Shown here piece after piece: positions 56 to 32,132 of a stretch of DNA of 33,906 nt. Every line of letters starts with the position of its first letter. The stretch's first letter is position 1. Where the stretch lies: positions 1 through 33,906 of the forward strand of contig ML002400.1 of the NCBI GenBank assembly GCA_003614675.1, read 5' to 3'. The notes under the pieces are model-generated. The model saw nothing but the letters and a program-made list of their open reading frames with translations. It was not told where the DNA came from and searched no databases. Origin of the DNA: Dimargaris cristalligena (Eukaryota). Both the position numbers and the translations under genes were made by a program.

Positions 56-84
56 GAAAAGTAGTGTGGCCACTCATTACCTGG
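43..84 (-). repeat. Exact 42-bp inverted copy of intergenic 1606-1647
   Basis: The reverse complement of 43-84 is ccaggtaatgagtggccacactacttttcaaacaaggcattg, which is 1606-1647. It overlaps the 1-55 copy by 13 bp (caatgccttgttt). Confidence 0.95.
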
Positions 85-1236
85 TTCAAGGTGGTACAGC
101 GCCATGACATGCTCCGGGCCCGCTTCCGGCCTATCGATGGGGAAACGATGATCTCTTTCGGCAGTATAGATGGCCCGTCGTCCACCTGTTTCGAGTACCA
201 TCGATTGGATGATATTCGTGACGCATTGAGCCAACTTAATGCCATTAACCACTTGATTAATTTCGATAAGGGACCAATTTCTCAGGTCCGAGTGTTTGAC
301 GTTGATGACATTCAGTATGTCTACATCTCGGTTCACCACTTGGTTTTTGACCTTTTATCGGTACAGATTGTTCGCGAAGACCTAACGGCCTTCCTTACTG
401 GTCAAACTCTCGATCCCATTACCCACTCTTATTCAGCGTGGGCTGATCATCTGTATTCTTTGGCCCAGTTCATCGATCCATGCAGTATTGACTTGCCCCT
501 CGCAGGCATCCCCCTGGCAGTGGAACTTTCTACGGATGGCACACTGATTACTAACGAAACGCGGGAGTACGCCAGGGAATGTATCGGTCAAAGCGCTACT
601 CGCCAGCTCATGACCGTTGTGACCAATCAGCTAGGCGCTGTTCCCGTTGAGCTGATCTTGTCCGCGTTAGTATGTGCCTACCACCGGCATTTTGGACTAA
701 CTCAATTGAGTGTGGTGTATTCAAGCCATGGTCGAAAAGATCCCCAGGGCAAGCTCGATGTCTCTCGTACGGTCGGTTTTTTTGCCTGCCAGTTTCCCCT
801 AGTTTTGCAGAATTCTTTAGATGGCGATTTAGCAATCACCTTGCGTGGCATTCAAGCCACGTTAAGCACAGGGATGGACAGCGGCTTCTTGCGCACTGTG
901 ACCAAAAACCTATATTGCTTCTCCGATGACGAGACTGAACTACAGCGACAGTTCGATGCTGAACCTCAATTCGGGTTTACCTATGTGGACAATATCGGGT
1001 TTCACGATTCCCCGGATTCCACGACTCTCTTGATCGACCGGCCTGCCATGGTTGACGAATTACGCACCACGAAGAGTCAAAATATTTACCCGTATTTATT
1101 CGATTTTGCAGCTTGGAATACTACTCGGGGATTGGAAATCACCACACATTACAACTCTAAGCAATTCCAGGTAGAAACAGTTAGCGGGTTTCTTTCATGT
1201 TGGAAGGAATGTCTCCTTGAGTTAACCCACATTTAG
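64..1236 (+). CDS. 3' fragment of an NRPS: terminal epimerization-like / condensation-superfamily domain (5'-truncated; genuine sequence begins at about 82)
   Basis: Motifs RHDMLRARF, HHLVFDLLS (334-351), SYSAWADHL, SSHGRKD (721-741; E-domain EGHGRE position) and SRTVGFFACQFP (E-domain RTVGWFTxxxP). Stop TAG at 1234-1236. The GTG at 64 lies inside the chimeric segment. Confidence 0.85.
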   Translation: MWPLITWFKVVQRHDMLRARFRPIDGETMISFGSIDGPSSTCFEYHRLDDIRDALSQLNAINHLINFDKGPISQVRVFDVDDIQYVYISVHHLVFDLLSVQIVREDLTAFLTGQTLDPITHSYSAWADHLYSLAQFIDPCSIDLPLAGIPLAVELSTDGTLITNETREYARECIGQSATRQLMTVVTNQLGAVPVELILSALVCAYHRHFGLTQLSVVYSSHGRKDPQGKLDVSRTVGFFACQFPLVLQNSLDGDLAITLRGIQATLSTGMDSGFLRTVTKNLYCFSDDETELQRQFDAEPQFGFTYVDNIGFHDSPDSTTLLIDRPAMVDELRTTKSQNIYPYLFDFAAWNTTRGLEITTHYNSKQFQVETVSGFLSCWKECLLELTHI

Positions 1237-2167
1237 GCTCCGGCCAGTATGAACTGCTTTGATGAAGTATCTGAGCTCCAGAATGTTCCTCGAAATGGTA
1301 ACTAGTATTGGAACGAAGCCAGGCTGCGATTCTAATAAAAAAAGTCGGCAATTAATTGAGTATGTTGGCAATGTAAGTTGGAGAAGGGCCTAGATTTTGT
1401 TTGAACTAATATTCAGAGGATCCGGTGTTCACCATTTAGAGCATAGTTCTTTATTTATAGTTAATTTTTTAAGTGTGCTATTAGCGAATTAAGTCCATCA
1501 AGGTGCCCATAAATTTACCTGTAAAAAAATCAATAATAATCACGTGAATGTATAGTTTGGAGGCCTCAATTCATAGGTGCACTATAGTCGTTGATAATCC
1601 TACGGCCAGGTAATGAGTGGCCACACTACTTTTCAAACAAGGCATTGTTAGTAGCGGGTACAGGTGGGCGTTTAATATAAAGATAAGTGGTGGTTTATTA
1701 ACGATAAGTATTATTAAGAAGCAGTAAATAGTTTTTAAGCAGCTATAGATCGAATGAGCGGGTGGGAGCAATAGTCAACTGGGGACCTATGCGAGGACGA
1801 GCCAGTTGCTCCTTTTATATCGGAGTAATAAGGGGCCTCATTTAGACACAACTTGGAGTAGTAATGGTACGACTGGCAACACTTAATGCCCTCGTAGAGA
1901 AGTCATCAGTTGCATTGTCTAAGGTCGGTGTGTCCCCATTTAGAGCCATAAACGGGGCCCTGGTGATATTAGTACCCTGGCCATATCTGGGGTTGCCCAG
2001 TGCTGCGGCATCAACAGCATCATTGTTCGCCTATTATATTACTCGCACGATTATTTATTGAATTAATTTCGGTAGATAATGAGGGAGGGGGCAGAAGACT
2101 GATCACTATGATATGGAAAAAAGATAATATATAAGGAGAAATGGGCAGTCTGCAAGGTCGGCCAGCC

Positions 2168-5100
2168 CTATATCGAACTATTATCGTTGGGTATTAAAGG
2201 CGGGGCTCCATCTAAAAGGGAGAGGGTGCTATGACGCGAATCTAGGGAGGTGTCTTTTGGAGGAAGTGGGGATATGAAGCCAGTATTGGCCATGTAGGCT
2301 AAACAGCTGTCCATCACATCAGAAATAGGCGGACAGTGCACATTATTGGCTTGACAAAAGGTCTGAGTATGGCTCGTGTCAATGGCCGGAAAATCCATCA
2401 TCTCGGGTAAACTGTCCAAAACAAATAAAAGCAGTGGATAGAGGGCATTGTCGACTGGCCTTTTGACAGCTGCTTTCAGATAGTTACACCAGTTGGTATA
2501 AGCTACGGCATCAAGGGTAAACCCAAGCATGCGGATATGATCAAAAATGTTGTTGTAACTAAACCGAGTGGCCATATCAATGTGAAAAGTCCCCACTGCA
2601 AGGGCATCGGGATTAATTGCAACTTGCACTATTACTTCAGCGGCGTAGTCAACTGGACACATAGCCATTGCACTATCCATGGTGGGAGCCTTGCCCAACT
2701 GGATACAGCCCTTGACAAACCGCCATAGGAAATCGTCAGTATTGACCACTCCAGATTGACTTGCTCCCACAATGAATCCGGGCCGAACAATGGTGCAGGG
2801 GTAGCCCCGGGACTGGGCCTCTAATATAAGTTTGTCGGCGACCCATTTGGTCTGATCATAGCCAGCAGGAATACTGAGCCGACTCCCCTCTAAGTTATCT
2901 GATTCCGGAATCCCGATGACTATCCTAGATTGGGCAGTTGGAGTGATATCAGGTGTGGATGGGGGGGACACAGGGAAAGTGTTGTCAGTGGAATATCCTT
3001 CTTTGTTGGATTTGGTCAAGTGGGTAGGATAGTCGTTAGTAAAGACTGATAATGTTGAAATGAAATGGAAAGGCTTAATATGGTGAGTAGTGGCAAGCTT
3101 GAGGGCCTCTAAGGTACCTAATACATTAGGCCCCCGCAGTTTCTCGTAAGGGTGCATCCAGTGAATTTGGGCCCCATTATGGATCACGACATCGACTATT
3201 TCGGCTAGGGACTTCCATTCAACCTCAGTGATGCCCAAATGGGGCTGTGCTAAGTCACCAACAATAGCTCGGATCTGCTGGCTACCATAACCAACAGACC
3301 AGTTCACCTTAGAGTTAGTCTGGATATGAAAGTCAGGTTCAAATTCTGTGATATCCCACTGGGACTGCCATACTAAGCGATTGATACAGCTCGTCTTGAT
3401 TCGGTCAAAGGCCCGATTGGGGTCCTGAGCCCGAGCCAGACAGTATACAGTGGCTGAAGGGAAATGGCTTAACAAGTTCGTCAGTATAAATGTCCCTAGA
3501 AAGCCAGTGGCACCGGTGAGAAAAAAGGTGGGTGCTCCACCGGACCGGACCTGATCAGGGAATATAAATGATTTGAAGGCCCGATTATTGTGAGTGTTTA
3601 TTAATAGGGGCGGAAGTTGATGGACGAGAGTATCGAAATCAGTTGAATATGTATTAGCTGGTTCAACTAAATTCAAGTCTGGAGTACTGTTGGTATTCAA
3701 GTCCGCTGAATATGCCTTTTGTGAAGAGACTATCTGCGCTATTTTCTCGGCAGGTGGTATATTCACAGTGTTTGTTGTGCCTGCCAACATTAATCGGTCA
3801 ATTTCATTGGCCATACCGTAGATGGTGGGCTCTCGGAATACTAAACTGTGTGGAATATTGGCCCCAAAAACCTTTTGGACTTGAATTGCCAGTCGGGTAG
3901 CTAAAATGGAATGACCCCCCATACTGAAGAAGTTGCTATGTAGCGGGGTTGCTGAATCCAGATCAAGTATATGTTGCCAAATTTTGTTTAGAGAAATTTG
4001 GGTTGGGCTGTAGTTTACCAGGTGATTGCTCACATCGGAAATGCTGCTTATATCCCTCATGGTAGGGGCATATGGCCTGTACTTTTCTGAACTTTGAAAT
4101 GCCTTGTGACAAGGTAAGGATAGCTTGTCTATCTTTCCATTGGCATTCACTGGGAGGTGGGTCAGAGGTACAAAGCAACTAGGGATACTATAGCTGGGTA
4201 ATGTATTATTTAGGCTCTCTCGGACTTCGGATACAAGGGAATATAGATAATTATCTGGACCCTCATCCTCACCTATTATCAAAGGTTTCCCAGAGCTCTC
4301 CCTAGTTGTATAATTGGATGGACCTGTAAATTTTGGTACAATGTAGGATACCAGGACCTGATCGCCATTTGTTGCATGACTCAATATTGTTGCACTTGTC
4401 CGAATCTGGGGGTGATGTAAAATAGTACTGTCAATTTCGTCAAGTTCAACCCGGAATCCCCGGATTTTGATTTGGTTGTCTGTACGCCCTAAGCATTGAA
4501 TTTGGCCATCTGGTAGCCATCGACCAAGGTCACCAGTGCGGTATAGCCTGCCCTGACCAGTGAAAATGTTTTTAATGAATTTGACTGGATTGAGATCAGA
4601 ACGGTTAATGTAGCCTTGACTAACACCAATCCCACCAATGTAAATCTCACCCACTGCTCCAATTGGTACCAGTTGAAGGTAGGCGTCCAAAATATAACAT
4701 TCATAGTTAGCAATTGGACGTCCAATAGTAATTATTCCATTATGGGGCATTTGGGCCCAGTGGCTGATAATAGTGGTTTCAGTAGGGCCATAGCAATTGT
4801 AGAGAGTGACAAAGGGTGCCCATTTTTCTGCAAGTTCTAAGGGAAAGTGCTCGGCACCACACATTAATGTTCTAAGCTGGGGATAGTAATGGGGCTCAAT
4901 AGATGAGATGATTGATACAGTAAGGTAGGCGCACTGTACTGTTGGCAAGACGGTTAAAAAAGTATCCTCATAAAAAACCATGGTTGAGCCATTTAAGATA
5001 AAGGAAAGTACAGTGAAGAGATAGGCATCAAATCCCGGGGGATTCACACTTAATACTCTCTGAGCTGGTTTCCAAATATCTTTAAAGGAGTCATTACAAA

Positions 5101-8100
5101 TGATATTAGCCAAACTATTATGCTGAACCATAACACCTTTTGGCAAACCCGTAGTTCCAGATGTAAAAATAATATAAGCCAAATCATCTGGTTGAATGGG
5201 GTGTACTGAGCTATAGCAAATAGGCTGGCTATTGTCAAAAGTAAGATTGGCCATGGATACTGCAGTAGGCCATTCTGCATCCGCAACTGATGCATTCACA
5301 ATGTGTGAACATTGGGCAGTTTCCACCATGTATTTTTGTCGACTAAAGGGTAGGGTGCTGTTAACTGGTACATAAATGGCACCAATAGACCAAATGGCCA
5401 ACATGCAAATAATTGTATTTGAGTGGTTATCCACGATCACTGCCACTTTATCTCCCGGTTTAACAGGTACTTGTTGCAGGTAGCAGGCCAACCCTTGGAC
5501 ATTGTGGGCCAACCCTGTGAAAGTTTGTGTTTGATTCCCTAACTCGATAGCAATATAGTTGGGATACTTCTTAACTGTAGTAAAAAATATGTCCAAAACA
5601 TTCAGTTTGGGATTTTTAAGAATGGTGGAGTTGGGTGGGCCATGCACAAAGTTCCTTAAAAGCAATTGAACCTCGGTTGGACAAGCCAATTGTGCACTTT
5701 TAATATACTGCCCAGAAGTGAATACATACTTTATATAAGATGTAAAGTTTAGTAGTAAGCTCCGGGCTGTCTCATATTTGAATGTAGCTGGATTATACCG
5801 GAGTTGCAGCTGGGCTGCTGTATTTTGGCGATCAACGACTAGCTGTAAGTCATATGGAAAAAGTGTTTGGGGTTGTTTGGAATGGATGATTTGTACGCCG
5901 GGTCGATTAGAATTGAAATTCAGGGGTCGGAATAGCACACCTATTCGGGCCATACCTGCAACTCTATAAAACATTGGAAGCCCCAGTTCAGCCCCCAGGG
6001 TTTCATTGTTTGGGACTGTATGCACCATGGATACCTGGCATTGCTGGGTAAATCTATGAACTAACTCTGAAAGTGTATTAGGTAAGCCACCAGTGTATCG
6101 AATTGGGTGGGACATATTTGTTGAAATTGAAGTTGTGGTTGATAATTCAGTAGGGCCTAGATCATATTTGTTAAAATCAATGATAATATCCTCCTGACCT
6201 GAAACTCGGAGAATAAAAGCAGTGAATACAGAAACCCAAATAATACTTTCACACACTGACTCGCAACTGGTAAAACTCGATAGCATTATATCCAGATCCT
6301 TGTCAAGGTTGGTTTCCACCACTGAACACTGTAAGTTAGTTGAATATGTTTGTATATAGTCAGCATATAGAGAGAGCTTAGTTGGGGGGTCATGGAGAAG
6401 GGAGGACCAGTAATTAATATCAGCCTCAGATGATTGATGGTTGTTATTATTAAGCATAACATGTTGTGGCTCAAATATATCTAATTTCTGGTTATCAATG
6501 CCTTGTTTCAATAATTCGGCCAGATTCTGGAAGAGCATGCTGTTTCCTACAATCTCATGAACATAGAAGTTGATTGCTGATTTAACTCCACCTGCAGGGG
6601 GCTGGGCAAATTGGTAGAGAGTAGCTTGAATAAGTATGCCCTGTTGAAGATTAAATTGCACTTTTTCTGAAGTAAAATCTATATACTCACTTTCCAGGGA
6701 CCCAGGCATGGCATACTCAATAACTTTGATTTGGACATTAGGGAGAATATGACAAGCAAGTATACCACCAGAGGTAGTAAAGCAGCTACGGAGTGCCTCA
6801 AATTGGGCCACTAGTTGATTGATGGATTTTTGAATATATGTGATGGCAATAGTTTCTGTTGATGTAAATTCACAGCAGTAGTAGAAAGTTCTTAGTGTAT
6901 CTGTGTATTTGCTAAGAGACCATATATTTTGTTGATAATCAGTGATTGAAGGACTTGATAAGACTATACCTAGTTGTTGAGGGGCATCAGTGATGAACCC
7001 TTTGCTTTTTAGATTCCACTCAGCTTTAAGTAATTGGCTAGTAATAACTTGAGCTAAGGACTGGAGGTTATTACAGTTAAATATATCCCTGATAGTAAGT
7101 ATTATACCATATTTCTGATGAATACAGAACTGGAGTCTCTCCCACTGGGCAAGTGTGAGTTTTAGTTGGGACTGAGGAATAGGTGACATTAAGTAGTCAG
7201 AGTTTGACTTGAGAGGCAAGCATAGTTCATTAATAAATACGGTTAGCCACCATTCTGTCTCTTTTAATGCTCCAACTTGGTCTAAGGGAAGGCTTGCGAG
7301 ATAAGCTTGGGCAAAGTATTGAACTCTATGATAAGATTTCTCTGTATAGTCAGCCACATGGGGGAATCCTTTAGTTGAAATAATGGCATCAGGAAAAAGT
7401 ACTTTTGGAACTACAGGAGGGGCTATTGAAGTCTGCAGACGAGCCAATTCTTCCTTAGATACATGGTTAACTATTACTACTAATTGGCTATTTGGCAATA
7501 CGAGGACCTGTGGACAGATGGCCCCAACTTGAAGTAGGGCCTGTTCTAATACCCCAAGATGAGCCCGTTGGTCTTGCAGATTCACCCATTGGGATTTAGG
7601 GCCCAGAATGCAAATGTGGTTATCTGAATTATAGTAGGCAAGACCCAAGTCACCAGTTTGTTGAATATTATTGGAATTTCTTATGTTGGCAAACCCTAGG
7701 TAACCAGGTACCCCAGGTGGGCAAGGATGGCCCCACTGATCAAAAACTACTAAAGAATTATCTCCAAATGGACTATCCATAATAGGTAGGGTGAAGGTAG
7801 CTAATTGATCACCAGGTACCAGACAGTACCCATGAAATAATGATACATTATAGACTAGACAGAGAAGTGATGGTTTGTCTAGATTAATGAGATCTGATGG
7901 AATTGTATGGGCCAAGTTAACAAGTACCAGTTGATCCATATTATGGTATTCATGGGTGAATCTATGGGCAGGAGTAATATGGCAATAGGCTGGGTTGATA
8001 TTATGTGGTGATCCTACAGTTACACTAAATAGTAGGCATGAAAGAATGAGCCAAGTGACTTCTAGACTCCCTAGGTCCAGTGAGGGATCAAAAGTATACC

Positions 8101-11100
8101 CATTCCTATTACTAATATATGACTCAGCTAATGCAAGGGTATGCTTGATATTCACAGTGTTAATAGTAAGCAGAATGGGCCCAGTTGGGCTCCAGCCAGT
8201 TATAAATTGTAAACTAATACCTGAGGTATTTGATTTGGTCATATGATACTGATTAAGCACTGTATCATTAACAGGTATACTGGTACTATCAGTTGGTATC
8301 TTGATTAGGTTAGTATTCTCAGGAAGGTAGGTTAAGTACTCATTAGGGAAAGAATCTGGGCACCACACTACATGGGGCTTAGATAATGCTAAATCCTGGG
8401 CTATCTGTTCAATATTCCTAGTGTTTGATTGAACTATCAGGTAGGCATCCATTTTGATTGTTGCTACTAAATATACAAATAACTGGCTAATATCTCCCAC
8501 AAGGGCTATTATAGTTGGTGGAAAATCTGTAATTATAGCATTAGTACATACTACTAGGGAATTGGCCAGGAGGTCAAGCTGACTAACAGACAGGTCTAAT
8601 TCATTACTCTGGTAGACTAAGTGGTCTGGATGGCTGTGGATAATACCATCCCAAACCTGAGCCAATGATTGGGAGCCCAGGGCAGAAGAGGGATTACAGG
8701 TATTTTGCTTTAGGCCTATAGCTGATGGCTGTGCTATTGGTTTGCTAAGAGTAAGCTGATCAATAGGGGTTTGGGGATCACATATTATTATTTGCTGAAG
8801 TACTACCTGAACCATATTCACAATCTGAGTAATAGAGGTTTCAGAGTAGATATTTGTACTATAGAAAGCTTTCACTTGAATGGAGGAGGGCTGTTCTACA
8901 AAATTGATAGCTAGTGGATATTGAGTAAACTCATGAATATAAATGTCTGATAGGGTTAATTCATGGGTTTGGTTAGGGACTAGGTTGGGAAAATTTTCAA
9001 ATCCCAGGAGTGTATGAAATAGGGGGCCTGTATGGCCCAAATCACCCCATTGGGCAATATCAATAAGTTGGGAGCACTCAAAAGGAATCATATCCACCTG
9101 GTCCTTATAAAGTGACTCAAGCCATGACCCAAGTGGAGAACTACCCAATTGAGCCCTGTATGGTACTGTATTGGTACAGGGTCCAATTACTGTATCCATA
9201 CTAGGTATATTCAAATTTCGGCCAGATATAATCATACCAAAAGTTACATCATCCTGGTTAAGTAGCCGGCCTAATACTAAGGCATAAGCAGCCTGGAATA
9301 GGGTTGCAATTGATATACCAATACTTTGAGTAGCTTGGATTAATTGGGCTTTGGAAATATCCAGAAGTGTTGAATATACTGTGTGACCCACTGGACCAAT
9401 ATACTTAGGGTATAGTAAGGGTGCTGGTGTAATTATGGCATTATGTAGATAGCGAGCCCAAAATACCTGTGCCAGTGCTGGATCTGACTGGGATATATAT
9501 TTCACAACAGTTGGAAAGTTAGTCTGCGGTGGGGGCACAGCTAGCATATGGTTATGATAGGCTACCATCCACTCCTGGAGGAGTAGGGGTAGCGACCAAC
9601 CATCCATTAATGAGTGGTGAATTGTGATAATAATCTCATGGACTTGGCTATTAGTAGTAGGGAACACAAAGTTACGGACCATATGTTCCTGGAGGGAGAA
9701 TCCCTGCCACCGGTTCTCAATAAAAAACACCTCAAGGGAATCAAGAGGCTGGTCTGAAATAGTCCAGGAAGTAGATAAAGAGGAAAGCACCACTTGGAGG
9801 AACCCCTGGGATAGAGTATTGGGAGATTCTATAAAATATGTACGCAGAGGAGAGTGCTGGTTAGCCACAGAGGCCCAGGCCTGGACTAGTCGATCTACAT
9901 CGAGTTGTCCAGTTAGTTTGATTGCCATTTGGATAAGGTAGGCAGACGGGTCTGAAGTCAGGTTCATTAGGAGGCCACCCTGAATGGTAACACATGGTAG
10001 TATGTCTTCAACCTGCGCAAGGGAAATGCCTCTTTGGTGGATTTGTGTCAAGATAGTCTGGAATCCAGTGTCAGAGAGAGCCAAATGTGGGAAGTCATAC
10101 TTGGTAAGCAAAGGTTCATTGGTCATATTCCCTGACTGTATGCTCATACTAGTAAGTTCAGCCAGGTTCTGATACCAGCTGGACATAACTTTGGTAATAA
10201 CATCACTGTGGTATACCTGGGGGTTATATTCCATAATTAATCGAAGGCAGTCACCAACTATTGTAGGCATGGGATTGAGGTCAAAAACAATGTAGTCCTG
10301 GGGGGCAAAGTCATGTAGTCCAAATGAATCGGACCACTCAATAGAAACTGGATCACTACCCTGGTGAGTACTTGAGTTGCTAAACTGGCCAAAGTAGTTG
10401 AACTGGACATCCATTCTCTCAGGGGTTTTAGCCATTAGTTTACGCTTCTCATCAACTTTTACACCTGGCATGTATTTGACTACTAAGTAGGGGAACCCTT
10501 TGGCCGGGATTCTCTGTAAGGCTTCCTTGGTATATTGTAATAGCTGCAAGAGTGACTGTCCTGGTTGAATTTGGAGTACTAGTGGATAGACGGAGGTAAA
10601 CCAGCCTACAGTGCGAGTAATATTTTGATCAGTGGTCCAGGGCTCCCGCCCATGGCCCTCCATACAAAAAGATATTTGGCTGACTCCAATGGTAGTAGAA
10701 AAGGCCTGGGCAAATGTGGCTAATAGTATGTATTGAGGGGTAACTCGCCATTGGGAGGCTAGTTGAAACAGAAGAGTGTTAGTAGACTTAGAATCAAACT
10801 CCAAAGATGCAGAAAGACGGGCTGCAGGATACTTCTCAGTACTTATCTCCACTGGAGGTAGTAGAGCATAAATATCGGGAATTGGGTGGTTTGGATCCAC
10901 CTGCATTGGCCAAACATCTGCGGAGAGAGTACTGCAGTAATCTGCCAATAGGTTAGACCAGGTTTGGAAAGACATTGTCTTTGGTGGAAGGGGTTTATCG
11001 AGAAATAGTGAATTTAAATCCTCAATGAGTATCCGCCAGGAAACCAAGTCCACCAGAATGTGGTGAATAGTAAAGAAAAGTTGGGTGTTCGATGGTTCAG

Positions 11101-14038
11101 CTGGGTCATGGATAATAGCCGCAGCAACTACCGGGCCAGTGGTAAGGTTGAGACTCGATTGGACCTGTAGAATAAAGTCCGAGTAGTCATCCAGGTCCAC
11201 AATTTTCTCTAATACCAGAAGGTCATGGATTGTGGCCGCCTCTGTTGGGATTGACTGAGTCCAACTCTGGCTATTTTCACTGAGTTGGAACCTTGCCCGG
11301 AGAATATCATGGTGGTTAAGTAAGGTAACAAGGGAATCAGTGAGTTTAGAGTGGGATAGTGGGAAATGAGGGTCAACCTGCAAATAAAAGGACTGGTTAA
11401 AATGACTGGGAGTCTTAAAAGGAAGATTGGTAAACCAGTGCTGAATGGGTGTGAGAGTTACATCACCCTTAACTTGGCCCTGGTAAGCAATGTCAGTATC
11501 CGAAATGGCACTGCTTTCTTGCTGAAGGTACAGAGCCTGTTCATTTAGTTTAGGGTACTGGTAGACTAGAGGTATGGTAAACTGATAACCCAGCTGTTGG
11601 AATCTGGATACAAGTAGAATAGCTGAGATTGAGTCACCACCAATCCTAAAGAAATGATCAGAAGTTCTAATTTTATCGGCGCCCTTCTGTAAAACCTGGG
11701 CCCAGGCCTTTTGGAGATCGTACTCGATAGATGAGAGTGGCTTTTCATCAAATGGTGATGTAGATGATTGGTTTACAAGGTGGTCGATTGGTGGAAGGGC
11801 CCTGCGATCTAATTTGCCGTTAACAGTTACCTGAAACTCTAACACTGGTACTAGTATTTGAGGGACCATCTGCTTAGCCAGACGACTGGAAAGGAAGTTT
11901 TGAAGGGAGACAGAGTCTAGATCGGCCGGGCTAGTATACAAAACAAGGGTATCTTGGACTATCGTTGCCACACAGTTTTTTAATCCACTGAAGCTGCCTG
12001 CCACGTGTTCAATTTCCTCGAGCTCGATGCGAAACCCACGCAGCTTAACTTGGTTGTCAATGCGGCCCAGAAATTCGAGTGTACCATTGGGGAGCCACCG
12101 AACACGATCACCAGACCGGTAGACCTGGCCGGGGCCATGGGGGCTAGTAATGAATTTAGATTTGGTTAATTCAGGTAGATTTTGGTAACCGCGAGAAAGA
12201 CCAGATCCTCCAATAAGCAACTCGCCAGGGACACCCACCGGCACTAATTGAAGTTGGTCATCCACCACAAAGTTGGTGACATTACTAAGAGGTCGGCCGA
12301 TCGAAATCTCATCACCAGGACTGATAATAGCTATGCTACTAAAAATGGTGGTTTCGGCCGGCCCATACCCGTTGATTAAGGTGCAATGGCTCGCCCATTG
12401 TGCCTGGAGTTCAGCTGTAAAGGGCTCCCCACCAATTGTAACTGTCTTCAGATTTCGAAAATCAACGGGGTTAAGCCGGGAAAGAAAGGAAGGGGTAAAA
12501 TCCGCTGTATCAACACTCTGTAAGTCCGCGACTATATTGGTAGTAGGGACAATCACGGTCCCCCCGGTACAAAGCCCGTAAAGTACTTCGAATACCATCC
12601 AGTCAAAGGCAACCGACATCATCAATATTGACTGGCGAGTCCCGCAATAGAATTCCATTATAGAGGGATTAGTAATAACGCTGGCCAGATTTTGGTGCTC
12701 AACAAGTATACCCTTGGGACGCCCTGTGGTACCAGAGGTATAAATAACATAAGCAAGGTCGTGTCGGGCTGATGGGTGTGGTTGGAAATCCGATGGATCT
12801 GAGTCGGGTGTTAATAAAGTGAAAGGGTCCACAACTAACGCAGGAATACAAGACTGGGGCGGTATAATGCAATAGGTCGATTCAGCGACAAGCACTAATT
12901 CCGCACCGCTATCCTCTAGAATATACTCAACACGTTCGACAGGGTATTCCGGGTCGATAGGCACATATGCAGCACCGGATTTGAGTACTGCAAGCAGTGC
13001 GATGACGTAAGCGAACGACTTGGAAATCAGCAGGGCAAATCGAGTCTCGGGTCGGGCACCGTACTGAGTGACCAGAACCTGAGCCAGATTGGAACTACAC
13101 GAATTTAGCTGGTGATAGGTCCATTTATATTGACCATGGATGACGGAGATGCTGTGAGGAATGTCTAGAGCTCTGGCGCAGAAAATCTGATGCACAGGCT
13201 GGTCCACGCACCGGATGGGTTCGTTCACGCGGGAGAAGGCCATCAAACGGACCCGTTCTTGCTCACTAATCCAAGGAATATTGCAGATTGATACGGGCGG
13301 CTGACTAGGATCCTTCACAGGCCAGACCCGGGTCACAGCACCTAAAATGGTACCCAATTGACTGGCGAATTCCTCAATGGCAGAGACCCGGAAGGTATTG
13401 CGCGAATACGTAATGTTCAGCACGGAAGAGCCATCCACAGTGGCAAGGTCAATGAGCAATTTAACCCCCATTGTGGTCACCATTGTGGAGGGAAAGGCTT
13501 CGTGATTGGTGGCACTAGAGTAGCTTAAATCGCCGGAGGTACAGCTGGATGCATGCCCGGGGACTCCGGATATACTACACCGTAGGATAACCTCGGGCGA
13601 TAGCGACGACTTGGAGCTGGAATTTGATGATTGGCTGACAGTGCCGTCAAAGACTATGGGCGGTCCCTGGCACTCATCAACGGCTTCGATTAAGGCGGCA
13701 ACTTTGATATCGGGGTCGACGTTGAACAATACCCAGACCAGGGAATCCCGAGCGAAGTTGGAAATCTTGATGGGTCCGGATAAGTAGCCGAATGCCACCT
13801 CTGGCTGGTTATAGTAGCGGCTCAGTAAGATGGCGAGAGAAGCCAAGGCCAACTTGCTAAATTCGGATACTGGATAAGGCTGAATCGTTTCGGGTAGAAG
13901 CTTGTGTTGGTAGGTTTCGATACCATGCTGGACCGAGCGCGGTTTGCCAAGGGGCAATCCGATCTTCGGATAAAACTCGGCAGGGACAGGCGTAAATAAG
14001 GCCGCATCATTAGTGGTCTGGTTGGAGTGTTGGGACAT
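2168..14038 (-). CDS. Multimodular nonribosomal peptide synthetase, ~3956 aa, intronless: partial C-A1-T1-E-C-(degenerate A-T-C)-A3-T3-R
   Basis: One continuous ORF; first ATG at 14038 (MSQHSNQ). A1: YVIYTSGTTGRPKG, NGYGPAETT, YRSGD, QVKLRGFRIEL, NGKLDR. T1: FFRIGGDSI. E: HHILVDLVSW, EGHGRE, RTVGWFTSVYP. C: HHSLMDGWS. A3: YIIFTSGTTGLPKG, YGPTETT, LYRTGDL, NGKIDK. T3: FFSMGGHSI. R: TGATGFLG, GYDQTKWVA. Confidence 0.95.
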   Translation of the reverse strand: MSQHSNQTTNDAALFTPVPAEFYPKIGLPLGKPRSVQHGIETYQHKLLPETIQPYPVSEFSKLALASLAILLSRYYNQPEVAFGYLSGPIKISNFARDSLVWVLFNVDPDIKVAALIEAVDECQGPPIVFDGTVSQSSNSSSKSSLSPEVILRCSISGVPGHASSCTSGDLSYSSATNHEAFPSTMVTTMGVKLLIDLATVDGSSVLNITYSRNTFRVSAIEEFASQLGTILGAVTRVWPVKDPSQPPVSICNIPWISEQERVRLMAFSRVNEPIRCVDQPVHQIFCARALDIPHSISVIHGQYKWTYHQLNSCSSNLAQVLVTQYGARPETRFALLISKSFAYVIALLAVLKSGAAYVPIDPEYPVERVEYILEDSGAELVLVAESTYCIIPPQSCIPALVVDPFTLLTPDSDPSDFQPHPSARHDLAYVIYTSGTTGRPKGILVEHQNLASVITNPSIMEFYCGTRQSILMMSVAFDWMVFEVLYGLCTGGTVIVPTTNIVADLQSVDTADFTPSFLSRLNPVDFRNLKTVTIGGEPFTAELQAQWASHCTLINGYGPAETTIFSSIAIISPGDEISIGRPLSNVTNFVVDDQLQLVPVGVPGELLIGGSGLSRGYQNLPELTKSKFITSPHGPGQVYRSGDRVRWLPNGTLEFLGRIDNQVKLRGFRIELEEIEHVAGSFSGLKNCVATIVQDTLVLYTSPADLDSVSLQNFLSSRLAKQMVPQILVPVLEFQVTVNGKLDRRALPPIDHLVNQSSTSPFDEKPLSSIEYDLQKAWAQVLQKGADKIRTSDHFFRIGGDSISAILLVSRFQQLGYQFTIPLVYQYPKLNEQALYLQQESSAISDTDIAYQGQVKGDVTLTPIQHWFTNLPFKTPSHFNQSFYLQVDPHFPLSHSKLTDSLVTLLNHHDILRARFQLSENSQSWTQSIPTEAATIHDLLVLEKIVDLDDYSDFILQVQSSLNLTTGPVVAAAIIHDPAEPSNTQLFFTIHHILVDLVSWRILIEDLNSLFLDKPLPPKTMSFQTWSNLLADYCSTLSADVWPMQVDPNHPIPDIYALLPPVEISTEKYPAARLSASLEFDSKSTNTLLFQLASQWRVTPQYILLATFAQAFSTTIGVSQISFCMEGHGREPWTTDQNITRTVGWFTSVYPLVLQIQPGQSLLQLLQYTKEALQRIPAKGFPYLVVKYMPGVKVDEKRKLMAKTPERMDVQFNYFGQFSNSSTHQGSDPVSIEWSDSFGLHDFAPQDYIVFDLNPMPTIVGDCLRLIMEYNPQVYHSDVITKVMSSWYQNLAELTSMSIQSGNMTNEPLLTKYDFPHLALSDTGFQTILTQIHQRGISLAQVEDILPCVTIQGGLLMNLTSDPSAYLIQMAIKLTGQLDVDRLVQAWASVANQHSPLRTYFIESPNTLSQGFLQVVLSSLSTSWTISDQPLDSLEVFFIENRWQGFSLQEHMVRNFVFPTTNSQVHEIIITIHHSLMDGWSLPLLLQEWMVAYHNHMLAVPPPQTNFPTVVKYISQSDPALAQVFWARYLHNAIITPAPLLYPKYIGPVGHTVYSTLLDISKAQLIQATQSIGISIATLFQAAYALVLGRLLNQDDVTFGMIISGRNLNIPSMDTVIGPCTNTVPYRAQLGSSPLGSWLESLYKDQVDMIPFECSQLIDIAQWGDLGHTGPLFHTLLGFENFPNLVPNQTHELTLSDIYIHEFTQYPLAINFVEQPSSIQVKAFYSTNIYSETSITQIVNMVQVVLQQIIICDPQTPIDQLTLSKPIAQPSAIGLKQNTCNPSSALGSQSLAQVWDGIIHSHPDHLVYQSNELDLSVSQLDLLANSLVVCTNAIITDFPPTIIALVGDISQLFVYLVATIKMDAYLIVQSNTRNIEQIAQDLALSKPHVVWCPDSFPNEYLTYLPENTNLIKIPTDSTSIPVNDTVLNQYHMTKSNTSGISLQFITGWSPTGPILLTINTVNIKHTLALAESYISNRNGYTFDPSLDLGSLEVTWLILSCLLFSVTVGSPHNINPAYCHITPAHRFTHEYHNMDQLVLVNLAHTIPSDLINLDKPSLLCLVYNVSLFHGYCLVPGDQLATFTLPIMDSPFGDNSLVVFDQWGHPCPPGVPGYLGFANIRNSNNIQQTGDLGLAYYNSDNHICILGPKSQWVNLQDQRAHLGVLEQALLQVGAICPQVLVLPNSQLVVIVNHVSKEELARLQTSIAPPVVPKVLFPDAIISTKGFPHVADYTEKSYHRVQYFAQAYLASLPLDQVGALKETEWWLTVFINELCLPLKSNSDYLMSPIPQSQLKLTLAQWERLQFCIHQKYGIILTIRDIFNCNNLQSLAQVITSQLLKAEWNLKSKGFITDAPQQLGIVLSSPSITDYQQNIWSLSKYTDTLRTFYYCCEFTSTETIAITYIQKSINQLVAQFEALRSCFTTSGGILACHILPNVQIKVIEYAMPGSLESEYIDFTSEKVQFNLQQGILIQATLYQFAQPPAGGVKSAINFYVHEIVGNSMLFQNLAELLKQGIDNQKLDIFEPQHVMLNNNNHQSSEADINYWSSLLHDPPTKLSLYADYIQTYSTNLQCSVVETNLDKDLDIMLSSFTSCESVCESIIWVSVFTAFILRVSGQEDIIIDFNKYDLGPTELSTTTSISTNMSHPIRYTGGLPNTLSELVHRFTQQCQVSMVHTVPNNETLGAELGLPMFYRVAGMARIGVLFRPLNFNSNRPGVQIIHSKQPQTLFPYDLQLVVDRQNTAAQLQLRYNPATFKYETARSLLLNFTSYIKYVFTSGQYIKSAQLACPTEVQLLLRNFVHGPPNSTILKNPKLNVLDIFFTTVKKYPNYIAIELGNQTQTFTGLAHNVQGLACYLQQVPVKPGDKVAVIVDNHSNTIICMLAIWSIGAIYVPVNSTLPFSRQKYMVETAQCSHIVNASVADAEWPTAVSMANLTFDNSQPICYSSVHPIQPDDLAYIIFTSGTTGLPKGVMVQHNSLANIICNDSFKDIWKPAQRVLSVNPPGFDAYLFTVLSFILNGSTMVFYEDTFLTVLPTVQCAYLTVSIISSIEPHYYPQLRTLMCGAEHFPLELAEKWAPFVTLYNCYGPTETTIISHWAQMPHNGIITIGRPIANYECYILDAYLQLVPIGAVGEIYIGGIGVSQGYINRSDLNPVKFIKNIFTGQGRLYRTGDLGRWLPDGQIQCLGRTDNQIKIRGFRVELDEIDSTILHHPQIRTSATILSHATNGDQVLVSYIVPKFTGPSNYTTRESSGKPLIIGEDEGPDNYLYSLVSEVRESLNNTLPSYSIPSCFVPLTHLPVNANGKIDKLSLPCHKAFQSSEKYRPYAPTMRDISSISDVSNHLVNYSPTQISLNKIWQHILDLDSATPLHSNFFSMGGHSILATRLAIQVQKVFGANIPHSLVFREPTIYGMANEIDRLMLAGTTNTVNIPPAEKIAQIVSSQKAYSADLNTNSTPDLNLVEPANTYSTDFDTLVHQLPPLLINTHNNRAFKSFIFPDQVRSGGAPTFFLTGATGFLGTFILTNLLSHFPSATVYCLARAQDPNRAFDRIKTSCINRLVWQSQWDITEFEPDFHIQTNSKVNWSVGYGSQQIRAIVGDLAQPHLGITEVEWKSLAEIVDVVIHNGAQIHWMHPYEKLRGPNVLGTLEALKLATTHHIKPFHFISTLSVFTNDYPTHLTKSNKEGYSTDNTFPVSPPSTPDITPTAQSRIVIGIPESDNLEGSRLSIPAGYDQTKWVADKLILEAQSRGYPCTIVRPGFIVGASQSGVVNTDDFLWRFVKGCIQLGKAPTMDSAMAMCPVDYAAEVIVQVAINPDALAVGTFHIDMATRFSYNNIFDHIRMLGFTLDAVAYTNWCNYLKAAVKRPVDNALYPLLLFVLDSLPEMMDFPAIDTSHTQTFCQANNVHCPPISDVMDSCLAYMANTGFISPLPPKDTSLDSRHSTLSLLDGAPPLIPNDNSSI
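2260..3530 (-). other. Terminal thioester reductase (R) domain, Lys2/alpha-aminoadipate-reductase-like (approximate bounds)
   Basis: FLTGATGFLG Rossmann motif, HNGAQIHWMHPYEKLRGPNVLGT, YxxxK (GYDQTKW), RPGFIVGASQSGVVNTDDFLWRFVKGCIQLG, DNALYPLL. Confidence 0.9.
3800..5600 (-). other. NRPS module 3: intact adenylation domain plus T domain (GGHSI) (approximate bounds)
   Basis: Core A motifs present (GAIYVP, TSGTTGLPKG, FDA, YGPTE, GEIYIGGIGV, YRTGDL, QIKIRGFRVEL, LPSYSIP, NGKIDK). GGHS is the T type normally followed by C/R/TE. Confidence 0.9.
5700..8660 (-). other. Degenerate internal A-T-C module kept in frame (approximate bounds)
   Basis: A remnants: FITGWSPTGP in place of YTSGTTGxPKG, DQWGHPCPPGVPGYL, QWVNLQDQRAHLGVLEQAL; no NGK lysine motif. 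The T-like helical bundle lacks GGxS. The C-like domain has HEIVGNS in place of HHxxxDG. Confidence 0.8.
8780..11460 (-). other. Epimerization domain (about 10150-11460) followed by a DCL-type condensation domain (about 8780-10020)
   Basis: E: LTPIQHWF, HHILVDLVSW, MEGHGREP, RTVGWFTSVYP, FNYFGQF. C: IQGGLL, HSPLRTYF, HHSLMDGWS, DDVTFGMIISGRN, IGPCTNTVP. The preceding T1 has GGDS, typical of a T before E. Confidence 0.9.
11560..13200 (-). other. NRPS module 1: intact adenylation domain plus T domain (GGDSI) (approximate bounds)
   Basis: LKSGAAYVPIDP, YVIYTSGTTGRPKG, AFD, NGYGPAETT, GELLIGGSGLSRGY, GRIDNQVKLRGFRIELEEIE, NGKLDR, FFRIGGDSI. Confidence 0.92.
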
Positions 14039-14202
14039 TTGTAGCAAGGGAAATGGGAAGGTTGAAATATTCAAACGAATACCGAGGTTTGGGCCGGTGG
14101 AAAAACTGTAGCGATTATTGGCACGAATTGCACAGAGTGAGAATGGAGTGTTCAGTAGTTGTGGTTGACTAATAGGCCAATGGTTGACGATTTCGGGTGA
14201 TT

Positions 14203-14208
14203 TTTATA
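14203..14208 (-). promoter_or_regulatory. Candidate TATA box for the large NRPS
   Basis: TATAAA on the minus strand about 165 bp upstream of ATG 14038. Motif and position only. Confidence 0.3.
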
Positions 14209-17200
14209 CTACGTTAGTAAGGACAGCTCTATCTCGCTGGTCATTTGGATTTAGTAAGGGTAATTCAATTTGCCAAGTATTTTCTAGCGTAAAGAGATTA
14301 ATAAACCGGTTTTTAGTTTGCGTATTGTCTCTCTGCCAGCTTTTTTTGAATATGGGTGAAGTTCAGCTTGGTTGTATAAGGTTTTAACTGGTATGTGTAT
14401 GGGAAAATCGGTGGGATGTATATTTTCAATCAGTAGTATTTGCCTCATCAAATGGATTTTTCGTTATACAGCCTTGCTGAACTACTCCCATATCTTTATA
14501 GTCATCAAGGGACACGCGATGCACTGTTTATGCCAAAACAGGTATTTGGTTTTCCCGCGAGGCTCGGGGCATTATGTATTTTATTCCGGACAATCTGCGG
14601 AGTATACCAATATAAAAACTAAATATGTCTACTGCCTATTTGAATGATTGCATGATAGTCATGCTTGAAACCGGAACTATCATGCTTTTTGAATATTTGG
14701 ACAAGACTGTCAAATATCGATTGCTGAGATTTGAGGCAGGCATTTGGTCTATTTGCAAATAATTGTGTACCCATAATATTGTATACCTATGTTCCATACA
14801 TTGATTCAGTACTCATTCACCCCTGATACTTTCTTGAAATCGACGTGACTTGGTCAGTGGTGTTCTTTTAACGGTAGACCTGGGAATGGCCGCGTGAGCG
14901 GCTTGGTTACAAATATTACTCTGGTGGCAATAGGCCTTTCTAATTAACGTAGGTCTGTATGTTATTCATATTAGCTGTACCCATACCCAACTTCAACTTT
15001 ATAGAACTTGCTCTCAGTGGATTTAATATCTAATAGCGATGTAGCACCAGCCACCCATACTTGAAGAGAGGATAGTTGGTCATAAGTATTGGTCGGTATT
15101 TAGTGTGTTTGAATAGAATATGAATTGACCACCAAGGTTCGCATTGTGGGGGGTATCATCGCCCGCCTAGACTCTCCGCTGTATTTAGGCAAGGGGGTTT
15201 TTGTCGATGACACATTGTCTTAGACCCGCTATATTTTGCCAGTGAGGTATCGTAAGCATAGATACTAATGTTGTTCACTCAGCTGATTGTACAGTTGCAC
15301 TGAGCCAATGCTAAGCTAAGATAGCAAAGTAGATTTCTAGTTAACTATAGCAATAATTTACGCAGGTGATGCAGAGAGTATTCAGCAATATCACTGAAAT
15401 AGCCGATGAGGCCGGCATTGCTTAAAGACAACTCGCCGAGTCCGCTGAAAGTGGTTCTGTAAAAATGTAACGCAGCGTGTGTCCTACCACATTGGGTATC
15501 TTGTGATACCTGACGCAAATATCAGCCCCCTGCATTAGTCGATAGGGCATAATATATCTAGTGTCATCACAAAATTAAGATCTGACCCACTTCGGTTGCC
15601 AAGTGATACATTTGTTTTTTTTTGCAGTCCTTTGACAAGTAATGGCTTTCGGTCGAGTAGTAGAACGCGGTGAAATTTTTGGACCGGGTTAGTAGTGTCT
15701 TGGCTTAACCAAGTACTCGCCAACTAAAATATAAAATGATGACTAAAAACTATTCGACGAACATATATTAAGCAAGCCTCGAGATATTTTATAGATTCCT
15801 TACGAAGTCACTCCTAATGTACATTTAACATACATTTCTGCAATGTGGATAAGGGAATGTGGGTTAATAATACCGCTGAATCATTCCCTGATGACCACTG
15901 AGATACCTAGCATGACTGGGGTACTTACTGCTACAAATATCGAGACATATACGTTACCCCCCTCTACTATCCAGGCAACTTCTCTCTATTGGATTATTAT
16001 TCTTAAATATCGAGTTCTATTGTCAAAGCGGCAGACGGCTTGGCTGCCCGATTGTAAAACAGGTTAAGCTAAAGGGCTATATAAGCAGTCGTCAGTTGAC
16101 GAATTCGTGACAATGAAGGTCCGTTCTCATATCTGTAACTCTACTTGCTATTATGGCAGGTATGCTATTGGTTTTAGCCCGGTTGGGAAGTATGGCTCAC
16201 CAATCAAGACCATGTAAATGCCTAAAACGACTGACACCAGTAAAACCCACTATGCAACCAAGTGTGCCTTCTTTCCGTTCTTTCTGAGTCGATTGCCCTT
16301 CGGAGGTATTTAGCCACTTATGATTAGGTCGGCTTGAAAATTGTAGGTTTTCCGGTCGACAACAGGTCAAATATATAGGTAACATATAGGTTAGACTTGG
16401 GTGTTTATTTTTAATTCTATACCGCCAGGGGATAGATCGGCCGTTTATAGTCAGGATTTTATCACAATGTTTCTAATTATATTCAACGATATTTTTGCAT
16501 CGACCACTTGGATTCCCAATATATTTAGCTGTATATAAGTACCGTACCACGTATATTATACTTTATAACTAGTTCGCCAGCTAAAATACCACCCATCTCT
16601 CTACCCTCTGAAGACCTAACAATTGACTGGGACTTCCGGTTGAGACCTGGGATCACTTAACCTGACAATGCATCTCAAGACCACACCGAGCTCTGGAGAC
16701 TTATCATTTATAATTCCAACGATGACGACTATTAGGCACTAGATAGACGAGTAGCGGTCAAGTAGTTTATTAAGAACAAGCCAGGTGTTGGCAATTAGGA
16801 GTCGCAGTAGAGTAGGTGGCTACTAAGTGGGCAATTGTATTTGGATATATAAAGATAACAATTGAAGGCGAACAGACACAATAACATATGGGAGATGTTC
16901 ATTCAGGCTGTATAACGAAAAATCCATTGGATGAGGCCAATATTACTGGTTAAAAGCTATTTTCACATATTTTCGCCCATACACGTATTATGTAAAGCCC
17001 TATACAGCTGGTTTGAATTTCATCCATATCAATAATTAGGGAGAAAGGGAAGAAATTTCTGTCGGTAGATCACAAACATGTCATACGAATAGACGATAGT
17101 CAAAATATTCAGGGGGGACATAATGGGAGGATCCATAATAACTTATATATCGGTAGAGAAGATTGCTTGTGTAAGAATCACCATGTTGACAAGTATTTGA

Positions 17201-32130: not shown

Positions 32131-32132
32131 CC

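Follow-up and report, generated by a model that had tools for sequence, protein, structure and literature searches.

The analysed window, a 33,906-nucleotide stretch of Dimargaris cristalligena (contig ML002400.1, positions 1 to 33,906), carries on its minus strand a long peptide-synthetase (NRPS) gene whose body is strongly depleted of CpG dinucleotides. The features on this side of the window are the following.

2168–14074, minus strand: NRPS open reading frame, 3968 codons, no internal stops
4325–11824, minus strand: wide trough of CpG depletion along the gene body, observed/expected (o/e) ratio ~0.1–0.5, down to 0 centrally
6520–9600, minus strand: interval singled out by an earlier sequence-only reading, 11 CpG against 122.7 expected, 118 GpC
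6789–9455, minus strand: span of the six CGN Arg codons that survive, whose CpGs lie at 6789, 7440, 7566, 9219, 9267 and 9453
6950–8737, minus strand: A/T-sized stretch, residues 1780–2375, without a Pfam match and with marginal collinear similarity to adenylation domains
7568–9218, minus strand: CpG-free core, 0 CpG and 54 GpC, its centre (8393) close to that of the reading frame (8121)
11825–14074, minus strand: CpG-normal 5′ part (codons 1–750, A1 domain), 119 CpG against 139 expected, used as internal control

The frame has its first ATG at codon 13 and ends in TAG. Pfam matches comprise two AMP-binding, two PP-binding and three Condensation domains and a C-terminal NAD_binding_4, in the order A1, T1, C1 (E-like), C2, a degenerate A/T-sized spacer, C3 (weak), A2, T2 and R; this modular succession of A, carrier and condensation domains, with a terminal release domain, is that of an NRPS. 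The protein is collinear with a D. cristalligena homolog, P0002, across residues 25–3415. The species is reported to hold 21 NRPS and 7 NRPS-like genes, and the order Dimargaritales ranges from 25 to 89 (PMC7466969, PMC9866270). A 58-bp stretch at 6454–6511 recurs at window positions 1–58.

The sequence-only reading had reported, by eye, no CG between 7568 and 9218. This proved exact: the CG at 7566 is followed by none before 9219, and the 1653-bp gap is the longest within the window. Base composition predicts 64.1 CpG in the core, and the Poisson probability of finding none is ~1e-28, or ~4e-24 when the baseline is the o/e of 0.84 measured for the window itself. In a codon-aware control, the protein was kept fixed and synonymous codons were drawn from the usage of the gene's own codons 1–750; this gave 60.0 ± 5.9 CpG for the core, with no fewer than 39 in any of 2000 draws, and 118 ± 8.3 for 6520–9600, where the reading had noted only a few and 11 are present against ~120 expected. 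GpC o/e is ~0.96 across 6520–9600 and 0.84 in the core, against a CpG o/e of 0–0.1. The desert is no assembly artefact, because contig X5, from a different sample and study, spans 310–9692 with just 6 base differences and contains it as well.

The loss is specific to CpG and runs through all three codon contexts, synonymous and non-synonymous alike. Codons 1501–2500 retain a single NCG among 251 NCN codons (30 of 203 in codons 1–750), 3 codon-boundary C|G pairs against 48 expected (61 against 71 in the 5′ part) and 6 CGN Arg codons, compared with 28 in codons 1–750. Both decay products exceed expectation in the core, TG with 128 against 112.9 and CA with 107 against 84.4; the joint TpG+CpA excess of 38 (17 in the 5′ control) stands against 64 missing CpG, so compensation is partial. 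Overall GC3 drops from 0.46–0.60 to 0.31–0.35, and third positions incapable of CpG membership show a modest drop, from 0.45–0.55 to 0.32–0.51.

The core is the floor of a graded trough of ~7–10 kb along the NRPS frame. From ~0.9 over the gene's first 2.2 kb, CpG o/e falls to 0–0.5 in the body and is 0.5–0.7 in the last 2 kb. On the NRPS side, 22 of the 500-bp windows have o/e below 0.3, and all of them begin between 4751 and 11251. Described earlier as CpG-rich, the 5′ end and the neighbouring genes are CpG-normal: o/e is 0.78–1.05 in 500-bp windows at 12001–14000 and 0.60–1.19 over 61 windows at 14100–29500, and no depletion was found in the window's three other ORF genes (a 919-aa ORF, a Zn2Cys6 factor and an RlmN-like gene). 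Codons 1001–1500 share 58–64% identity with P0002 yet have a CpG o/e of 0.2–0.3, whereas codons 1–250, at 37% identity, have normal CpG; the loss is therefore not merely relaxed constraint. The same comparison weighs on the idea that the region was emptied by a shift in codon usage, by AT drift under relaxed selection, or by selection against CpG-bearing sequence. Central GC (38–40%) does equal that of adjacent non-coding DNA, and the centre is the least conserved part of the protein (25–38% identity to P0002). We nevertheless consider such an origin very unlikely, as non-coding DNA at 14–17 kb with the same 40% GC has a CpG o/e of 0.8, GpC is unaffected, strong depletion reaches the well-conserved codons 1001–1500, and the leftover CpGs are hypermutable. 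Moreover, silent CGN-to-AGR or NCG-to-NCH changes would be expected, where replacements of Arg by Q, H, C or W are observed.

These replacements have a direction. In codons 751–3000, Arg in P0002 faces C, W, H or Q in the window protein at 33 positions, with 4 in reverse, compared with 11 forward and 10 reverse in the control codons 1–750 (Fisher p = 0.003); the 33 comprise 29 changes to Q/H and 4 to C/W. Taking all 15 replacements predicted from CpG decay, the depleted zone has 162 against 94 (binomial p = 2.5e-5) and the control 45 against 39, although this pooled test does not differ significantly between zone and control (Fisher p = 0.12), which we count against a methylation origin. Of the 1175 mismatches, a net 68 (~6%) are excess CpG-type replacements. 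Relative to the homolog, substitutions thus appear polarised from CpG to TpG/CpA, in a protein-level comparison of two sequences without an outgroup in which P0002 may be an ortholog or a paralog. CpG o/e, GpC o/e and substitution bias were the measures named beforehand as able to refute the sequence-only reading, and none of the three does so (0–0.1, ~0.96 and a bias toward CpG decay).

The alignment also bears on a mosaic origin, in which a CpG-poor gene or genome would have donated the centre through recombination, gene conversion or transfer. Shuffling is known among NRPS modules, horizontal transfer has been proposed as a source of non-Dikarya NRPS genes (PMC7466969), and the 58-bp stretch at 6454–6511 is repeated at the window start. 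However, the protein is collinear with P0002 through the whole trough with the alignment unbroken, CpG content changes smoothly on either side with no step, and the Arg to Q/H bias extends into the shoulder (14 against 1 in codons 751–1500), which makes an imported centre extremely improbable.

Selection has filtered what remained. The CpGs at 7566, 9219 and 9267, named earlier as Arg codons, are all CGN Arg; P0002 has Arg opposite 9219 and 9267 and Gln opposite 7566, and 4 of the six surviving CGN Arg codons face Arg there. Arg codons account for 6 of the 11 surviving CpGs, compared with 28 of 119 in the 5′ zone (p = 0.035). This enrichment, together with 3968 codons held open, agrees with the earlier proposal of a selective filter. 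The protein centre is Arg-poor, as had been noted: Arg makes up 0.8–2.0% of residues in codons 1501–2500 and 2.8–4.4% in codons 1–750.

A different outcome awaited the proposal that a mutator drives the degeneration of NRPS modules. P0002, with three AMP-binding and five Condensation stretches in Pfam, likewise has a central region without a Pfam-detectable A domain and with marginal A-domain similarity, yet its Arg content is ~5% and it is not Arg-poor. Because the homolog is equally degenerate but not poor in Arg, the degenerate module predates CpG decay; on this comparison it is old and not a product of that decay. The more exciting claim, that decay led to module degeneration, is corrected accordingly.

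Toward its far end, the window holds a second CpG desert, of a depth equal to that over the NRPS gene and absent from the earlier reading.

30269–33906 (window end), no strand assigned: second CpG desert, 5 CpG against 180 expected, 146 GpC, left edge sharp
30764–32130, no strand assigned: inverted repeat with arms at 30764–31294 and 31596–32130, ~80–82% identity, one CpG in each arm
32590–33318, plus strand: decayed SKI3-like (Superkiller 3, TPR) pseudogene fragment with in-frame TAG at 32911, 33187 and 33316

The SKI3-like pseudogene is dispersed and is frameshifted further downstream. That the window contains another CpG-free block, lying on an inverted repeat and a pseudogene, gives context to a reading by regional methylation. 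Against that reading we count a pair of ~147-bp repeats, very high in copy number, next to the NRPS gene (14350–14496 and 16883–17029): with 2 CpG against 4.7 expected and 3 against 4.6, it is not clearly depleted, so repeats are not uniformly targeted. The 2.4 kb between the two copies has a CpG o/e of 0.82.

Comparison between samples shows that the remaining CpGs are still hypermutable and that loss is ongoing between near-identical strains. Surviving CpGs occupy 0.71% of bases within 6520–9600, and 2 of the 4 differences between X5, an independent sample, and the window there are C>T changes at these sites (p = 3e-4); across 5075–11824, 3 of 9 differences fall at CpG, 2.0% of bases (p = 6e-4). 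These are small SNP counts from contigs of two samples, and CpG sites are enriched ~3-fold among differences in the CpG-normal zone too (4 of 17, at 8.1% of bases). Read depth in the desert core is at baseline, i.e., there is no copy at 90% identity or more. At 9.3–11.3 kb, depth rises 1.5–2.4 fold and contigs break in all three runs, which indicates near-identical copies or alleles there.

Repeat-induced mutation of the RIP type had been offered as an alternative to methylation in the sequence-only reading. RIP, known from Neurospora and other Pezizomycotina, is a genome defence that converts C to T in repeated DNA and lowers GC; its classical thresholds are TpA/ApT > 0.89 and (CpA+TpG)/(ApC+GpT) < 1.03. 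The NRPS core has values of 0.98 and 1.32, and bins of the depleted zone have 1.28–1.39 for the second index, so that the composition is not that of classical RIP. Nor is the target: no repeat within the window matches the core, depth there is at baseline, the trough grades off at its edges, and the 3968 codons contain no stop. What stood of the proposal is a CpG-specific loss biased in the direction of decay; classical RIP did not.

A further candidate is a RIP-like burst triggered by duplication, in which a premeiotic genome defence would have taken the NRPS centre for repeated DNA and deaminated its CpGs in one or a few sexual cycles. This idea gains from the large NRPS family of Dimargaritales, from the contig breaks and raised depth at 9.3–11.3 kb, and from the inverted repeat of the second desert, whose values (1.48 and 0.94) lie on the RIP side of both classical thresholds. 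This repeat is the only place with RIP-like composition. Several observations render the burst unlikely. The trough edges do not coincide with a repeat boundary, and its target is CpG where that of RIP is CpA. Among the 28 CGN Arg codons of the CpG-normal 5′ part, 5 are CGA, from which a burst would be expected to leave TGA stops, yet the frame is intact; Arg codons are enriched among the survivors, the second index stays above its threshold in the trough, and loss continues between two near-identical strains. The baseline depth leaves a family-homology trigger unsupported for the core itself. Neither RID nor RIP is known to occur beyond Dikarya.

Taken together, we regard it as quite probable that the desert is the footprint of long-term regional 5mC deamination at the NRPS body and, separately, at the nearby block of repeat and pseudogene; 5mC as the cause, and whatever recruits it, we infer from the sequence pattern. 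Methylated CpG would be turned into TpG or CpA by deamination, far faster than mutation proceeds elsewhere, and over time almost all CpGs whose loss is tolerable would disappear. Purifying selection would have held the 12-kb frame open, purging nonsense and radical changes and keeping a few Arg codons. The deepest loss would lie at the centre because the anciently degenerate A/T module offers least resistance, and the first ~2.2 kb of the gene would never have been affected. Pfam scans of the window returned no encoded CpG-capable DNA methyltransferase (DNMT1, DNMT5 or DIM-2).

Related patterns are known. CG 5mC has been described at repeats and silent genes in Phycomyces blakesleeanus and at repeats in Linderina pennispora (Lax et al. 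2024, PMC11258239), the latter in the same subphylum as the Dimargaris-like fungus (Kickxellomycotina). The methylation there is regional, in CG context, missing from active genes and found on repeats and some non-expressed genes, and the methylation proposed for the NRPS gene would be of that kind. Here, however, a sequence footprint alone is seen, inside an intact 12-kb coding frame with the 5′ 2.2 kb spared and far deeper (o/e 0) than light gene methylation would give. The available part of that paper describes no coding-gene CpG decay of the NRPS kind; it gives 5mC as scarce in Zoopagomycota, which we count against methylation. In the literature, early-diverging fungi are presented as 6mA-rich and 5mC-poor, with 5mC limited to repeats. 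In Zymoseptoria tritici, Dim2 supports 5mC-dependent C-to-T mutation of methylated repeats (PMC8016269). There, as would hold here, methylation raises the local C>T rate and alters the evolutionary path of the methylated sequence; that case is one of transposon repeats in a DIM-2-bearing ascomycete, and ours one of a single-copy-looking coding region in a zoopagomycete with a putative enzyme.

Plant and invertebrate genes under gene-body CpG methylation have low CpG o/e (PMC12695648). The NRPS gene shares the loss in the body, the spared 5′ end (judged on the reading frame), the partly spared 3′ end and the strongest effect in a very long gene. However, its depletion is much deeper than typical, and the pattern of many constitutive genes is not seen, the three other ORF genes being unaffected and 61 windows showing o/e 0.60–1.19 (in this single window). 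Fungi are reported to be without gene-body methylation, with rare exceptions (PMC13297926, PMC7862722), the former also mentioning RIP. Rather than methylation of the plant or animal gene-body type, we lean towards repressive methylation acting on a gene that is silent or seldom expressed and belongs to a large, partly duplicated family. Most likely this is a known process in an unusual place, a peptide-synthetase gene that is still intact.

A bolder and rather doubtful proposal is that Dimargaritales place heritable CpG methylation within secondary-metabolite genes that are very long or silent, covering the body but leaving the first ~2 kb free, and that its mutagenic load measurably rewrites NRPS proteins (Arg to Gln/His). 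Such a 5′-to-body partition would resemble the 6mA/5mC partition of some protists. If true, epigenetic silencing would itself be a motor of divergence in a large NRPS family of mycoparasites, and an exception both to fungi without gene-body methylation and to the near-zero 5mC of zoopagomycetes.

Our results would place strong regional CpG methylation in the past, and probably the present day, of a Dimargaris-like mycoparasite. If the gene is methylated, CpG methylation reaches an intact coding gene and has altered its protein. The pattern further suggests that CpG o/e troughs may serve as a simple screen for silenced biosynthetic genes in hard-to-culture lineages.

The CpG loss described in the sequence-only reading lies in one gene of the window:

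2168-14074, minus strand: NRPS frame of 3968 codons, uninterrupted

The frame encodes, in order, A1, T1, C1 (E-like), C2, about 600 residues without a Pfam hit, a weak C3, A2, T2 and a reductase domain. Its best homologs, P0002 and P0003, are both gene models for a single NRPS of Dimargaris cristalligena. The homologs ranked next, none of them suited as an outgroup for polarisation, align over 29-37% of the query at 22-31% identity; P0019 from Dispira parvispora stands apart with 70% coverage at 22% identity.

The CpG gap described in the sequence-only reading proved exact: after the CG at 7566 the next lies at 9219, and these 1653 bp form the longest gap in the window. The core (7568-9218) contained 0 CpG against 64.1 expected, with 54 GpC, and the surrounding interval 6520-9600 contained 11 against 122.7, with 118 GpC. 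A codon-aware control held the protein fixed and redrew synonymous codons 2000 times with the usage seen in codons 1-750 of this gene; it predicted 60.0 ± 5.9 CpG in the core, never fewer than 39, and 118 ± 8.3 in the interval. CpG was emptied in all three codon contexts, namely NCG codons, C-G codon boundaries and CGN Arg codons. In 500-bp windows, the gap was the floor of a graded trough. The observed/expected ratio (o/e) was 0.78-1.05 at 12001-14000, descended through 0.49, 0.34, 0.36, 0.17, 0.30 and 0.14 to 0 at 8001-9000, and past the floor climbed back through 0.09-0.23, 0.28-0.51 and 0.35-0.39; it stood at 0.5-0.7 in the 3' end of the gene and at 0.9 past it. The centres of the core (8393) and of the ORF (8121) nearly coincide. 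An o/e below 0.3 was found in 36 of 134 overlapping 500-bp windows, all within 4751-11750 or 30001-33750; across 14100-29500, values in the 61 windows ran from 0.60 to 1.19. The desert is not an assembly artefact, since an independently obtained contig, from a different sample and a different study, covers 310-9692 and differs at 6 bases.

Mutation of CpG to TpG/CpA is indicated by several results. The sum of TpG and CpA was 38 above expectation in the core and 17 above in the 5' control (codons 1-750). Over residues 25-3415 the window protein aligns collinearly with P0002, so that asymmetry between replacements could be tested against an internal control. In the depleted codons 751-3000, Arg in P0002 faced Cys, Trp, His or Gln in the window protein 33 times against 4 in reverse, a protein-level count without an outgroup, whereas the CpG-normal codons 1-750 gave 11 against 10 (Fisher p = 0.003 for the contrast between zones). 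With all 15 CpG-decay replacement types pooled, the depleted zone gave 162 against 94 (binomial p = 2.5e-5) and the control 45 against 39, although the pooled contrast between the two zones was not significant (p = 0.12). Selection against CpG is an unlikely cause: it would be expected to take silent routes, whereas Arg was lost to Gln and His, the replacements that CGN deamination yields. At an equal 40% GC, the non-coding DNA of 14-17 kb has a CpG o/e of 0.8, and general AT drift is therefore no explanation; GC3 at third positions that cannot have belonged to a CpG dropped only modestly, from 0.45-0.55 to 0.32-0.51. Relaxed constraint alone fails as well: the o/e is 0.2-0.3 in codons 1001-1500 despite their 58-64% identity to P0002, and CpG is normal in codons 1-250, at 37% identity.

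The decay passed through a selective filter. The NRPS frame has 0 stops in 3968 codons, and Arg to Gln/His replacements outnumbered Arg to Cys/Trp by 29 to 4, a surplus that fits the purging of radical and nonsense outcomes. The observation that several surviving CpGs are Arg codons was borne out: CGN Arg codons make up 6 of the 11 in 6520-9600 but 28 of 119 among the CpGs of the 5' zone (p = 0.035), and P0002 has Arg at four of these six.

The proposal that a mutator drives NRPS module degeneration was not upheld, as P0002 is also degenerate centrally yet not Arg-poor. P0002 has 3 AMP-binding stretches against 5 Condensation stretches, and in both proteins the central ~600 residues show marginal, collinear A-domain similarity only. 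An HMM built from five intact A domains gave E-values of 0.006 and 0.00025 for the two central regions, and the best BLASTP E-value was 0.054. Where the window protein has 2-5 Arg per 250 residues, P0002 for the most part carries 10-13. With an equally degenerate but Arg-retaining module in P0002, it follows that the NRPS module was degenerate before CpG decay set in. The net surplus of CpG-type replacements amounts to 68 of 1175 mismatches.

The trough's remaining CpGs look strongly hypermutable, as judged from small numbers of unpolarised differences in contig data. X5, an independent sample from a different study, differs from the window at four positions in 6520-9600, and two of these, 7501 and 9527, fall on surviving CpGs as C>T changes of unpolarised direction; surviving CpGs account for 0.71% of bases in that interval (p = 3e-4). 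Over 5075-11824, CpG sites take 3 of 9 differences at 2.0% of bases (p = 6e-4), and over the CpG-normal 11825-20000 they take 4 of 17 at 8.1% of bases (p = 0.044). The per-contig difference counts for X5 agree with the differences found on its long contigs; one further difference, at 10563, falls where coverage comes solely from a contig outside that tally.

A RIP-like process, also suggested from the sequence alone, does not hold in its classical sense for the NRPS trough. There, (CpA+TpG)/(ApC+GpT) is 1.28-1.39, outside the classical indices, and the graded edges and 0 nonsense codons speak against it as well. A1 and A2 share 32% identity in direct comparison, and therefore form no intragenic DNA repeat able to act as a homology trigger; self-BLASTN of the window found no intragenic NRPS repeat. 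The core lies at baseline read depth, with extra depth and shared contig breaks confined to ~9.3-11.3 kb. All three sequencing runs break contigs alike at 9692/9789, 10277/10691 and about 11030, with depth 1.5-2.4 fold higher there, and run X4 holds a variant contig with 6 differences at 10943-10997. The extra depth and breaks (9692-11033) could be due to near-identical paralogous NRPS segments or a second allele; passages of PMC9866270 bear on alleles of a non-haploid genome as a possible source.

A second CpG desert, absent from the sequence-only reading, lies at the far end of the window, with two features inside it:

30269-33906 (to the window end): second CpG desert, 5 CpG against 180 expected, GpC 146
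30764-31294 and 31596-32130: inverted repeat, arms of ~530 bp, 82% identity
32590-33318, plus strand, frameshifted onward to about 33800: decayed Superkiller-3 (SKI3, TPR) pseudogene fragment

The left edge of the desert is abrupt, with CpGs spaced 50-70 bp apart until 30113 and then at 30268, 30848, 31639 and 33224. The arms of the inverted repeat differ by 60 transitions and 33 transversions, and the commonest adjacent double mismatch between them is CA/TG (5 of 23), as independent decay of shared ancestral CpGs would give. Unlike the NRPS trough, the inverted repeat satisfies both classical RIP indices (TpA/ApT 1.48; (CpA+TpG)/(ApC+GpT) 0.94). Half of the C/T differences between its arms (30/60) lie in CpA context, against a background of 23%, and CA/TG pairs from decayed CpGs account for only part of this surplus.

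The in-frame stops of the pseudogene are all TAG (32911, 33187, 33316); against relatives, 33187 aligns with Trp and 33316 with Gln. The frame is 28-34% identical to Ski3 TPR proteins of Dispira simplex and Tieghemiomyces parasiticus, and 64-85% identical to three short 'hypothetical proteins' on three D. cristalligena contigs; the SKI3-like element therefore represents a dispersed family of decayed pseudogenes. One of these three D. cristalligena gene models omits the stretch ending in the 32911 stop, intron-like. When 10 ORFs from the second desert were scanned with Pfam, they returned one TPR_19 hit and nothing transposon-like. Repeated, dead DNA is the usual fungal 5mC target, and CpG erasure in this same genome region covers such DNA. 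Another repeat lies just upstream of the NRPS gene:

14350-14496 and 16883-17029: inverted ~147-bp repeat pair, 76% identical, flanking 2.4 kb

With a summed contig depth of about 50,000 in X5, against about 160 for unique DNA, and dozens of contig ends, the pair is a very high-copy MITE-like family. In contrast to the second desert, it is not clearly CpG-depleted.

Other parts of the window encode the following genes:

23379-26228, plus strand: Zn2Cys6 transcription factor
28009-28890, minus strand: RlmN-like radical-SAM gene

Against proteins of Dimargaris xerosporica, D. verticillata and Dispira parvispora, the RlmN-like ORF shows 56-59% identity; together with the NRPS homologs, this puts the fungal source of the window in or near Dimargaritales (Kickxellomycotina). 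A GC-rich block at 19881-25500 (54-64% GC against 38-47% in most other parts of the window) contains a 919-aa ORF without a Pfam family (19881-22640, minus strand), the 5' half of the Zn2Cys6 factor and several long overlapping ORFs in other frames, which are usual in GC-rich DNA. Among ORFs of at least 80 aa at 14.1-19.9 kb, none was recognisable by eye. The ORF at 64-1236 (plus strand) encodes an E-like condensation domain and probably represents the tail of another NRPS gene, convergent with the first and truncated by the window start; at 23.5% identity to C1 of the main gene, it is ruled out as a recent inverted duplicate. Its CpG o/e is 0.9-0.96, and in X5 it carries an in-frame 24-bp deletion at 971. 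Bases 1-58 are 98% identical to 6454-6511 (inside the NRPS frame, same orientation), 1606-1650 recurs in reverse complement at 40-84, and 1-310 are covered by no long contig from the runs. The window start looks like a chimeric junction or a short dispersed repeat.

The best-supported explanation of the NRPS trough is CpG methylation that stayed confined to this region over a long period and whose 5mC deaminated, turning CpG into TpG/CpA. The CpG specificity, the direction, the selective filter and the continuing hypermutability belong to the data; the methylation itself and the responsible enzyme we infer. A bolder alternative is a gene-body-type methylation pattern, with which the spared 5' 2.2 kb and the centring of the depletion on the ORF agree; however, none of the three other window genes is depleted, and the adjoining NRPS-type C-domain ORF (64-1236) is CpG-normal. 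We lean towards a repressive role, with methylation placed on a gene that belongs to a large family and is rarely expressed. Passages of PMC11258239 report 5mC for Phycomyces, where it sits on repeats and on genes that are not expressed, and for the repeats of the kickxellomycete Linderina; repressive methylation would match these cases.

Passages of three reviews describe fungi as largely without gene-body methylation, and early-diverging fungi as having little, transposon-confined 5mC (PMC13297926, PMC7862722, PMC12695648). Literature linking Dimargaris with DNA methylation, or describing CpG decay of an NRPS gene, was not found among the matches listed. CpG decay under methylation is textbook knowledge, and the NRPS trough would thus be a new instance of a known process, unexpected in both its lineage and its place.
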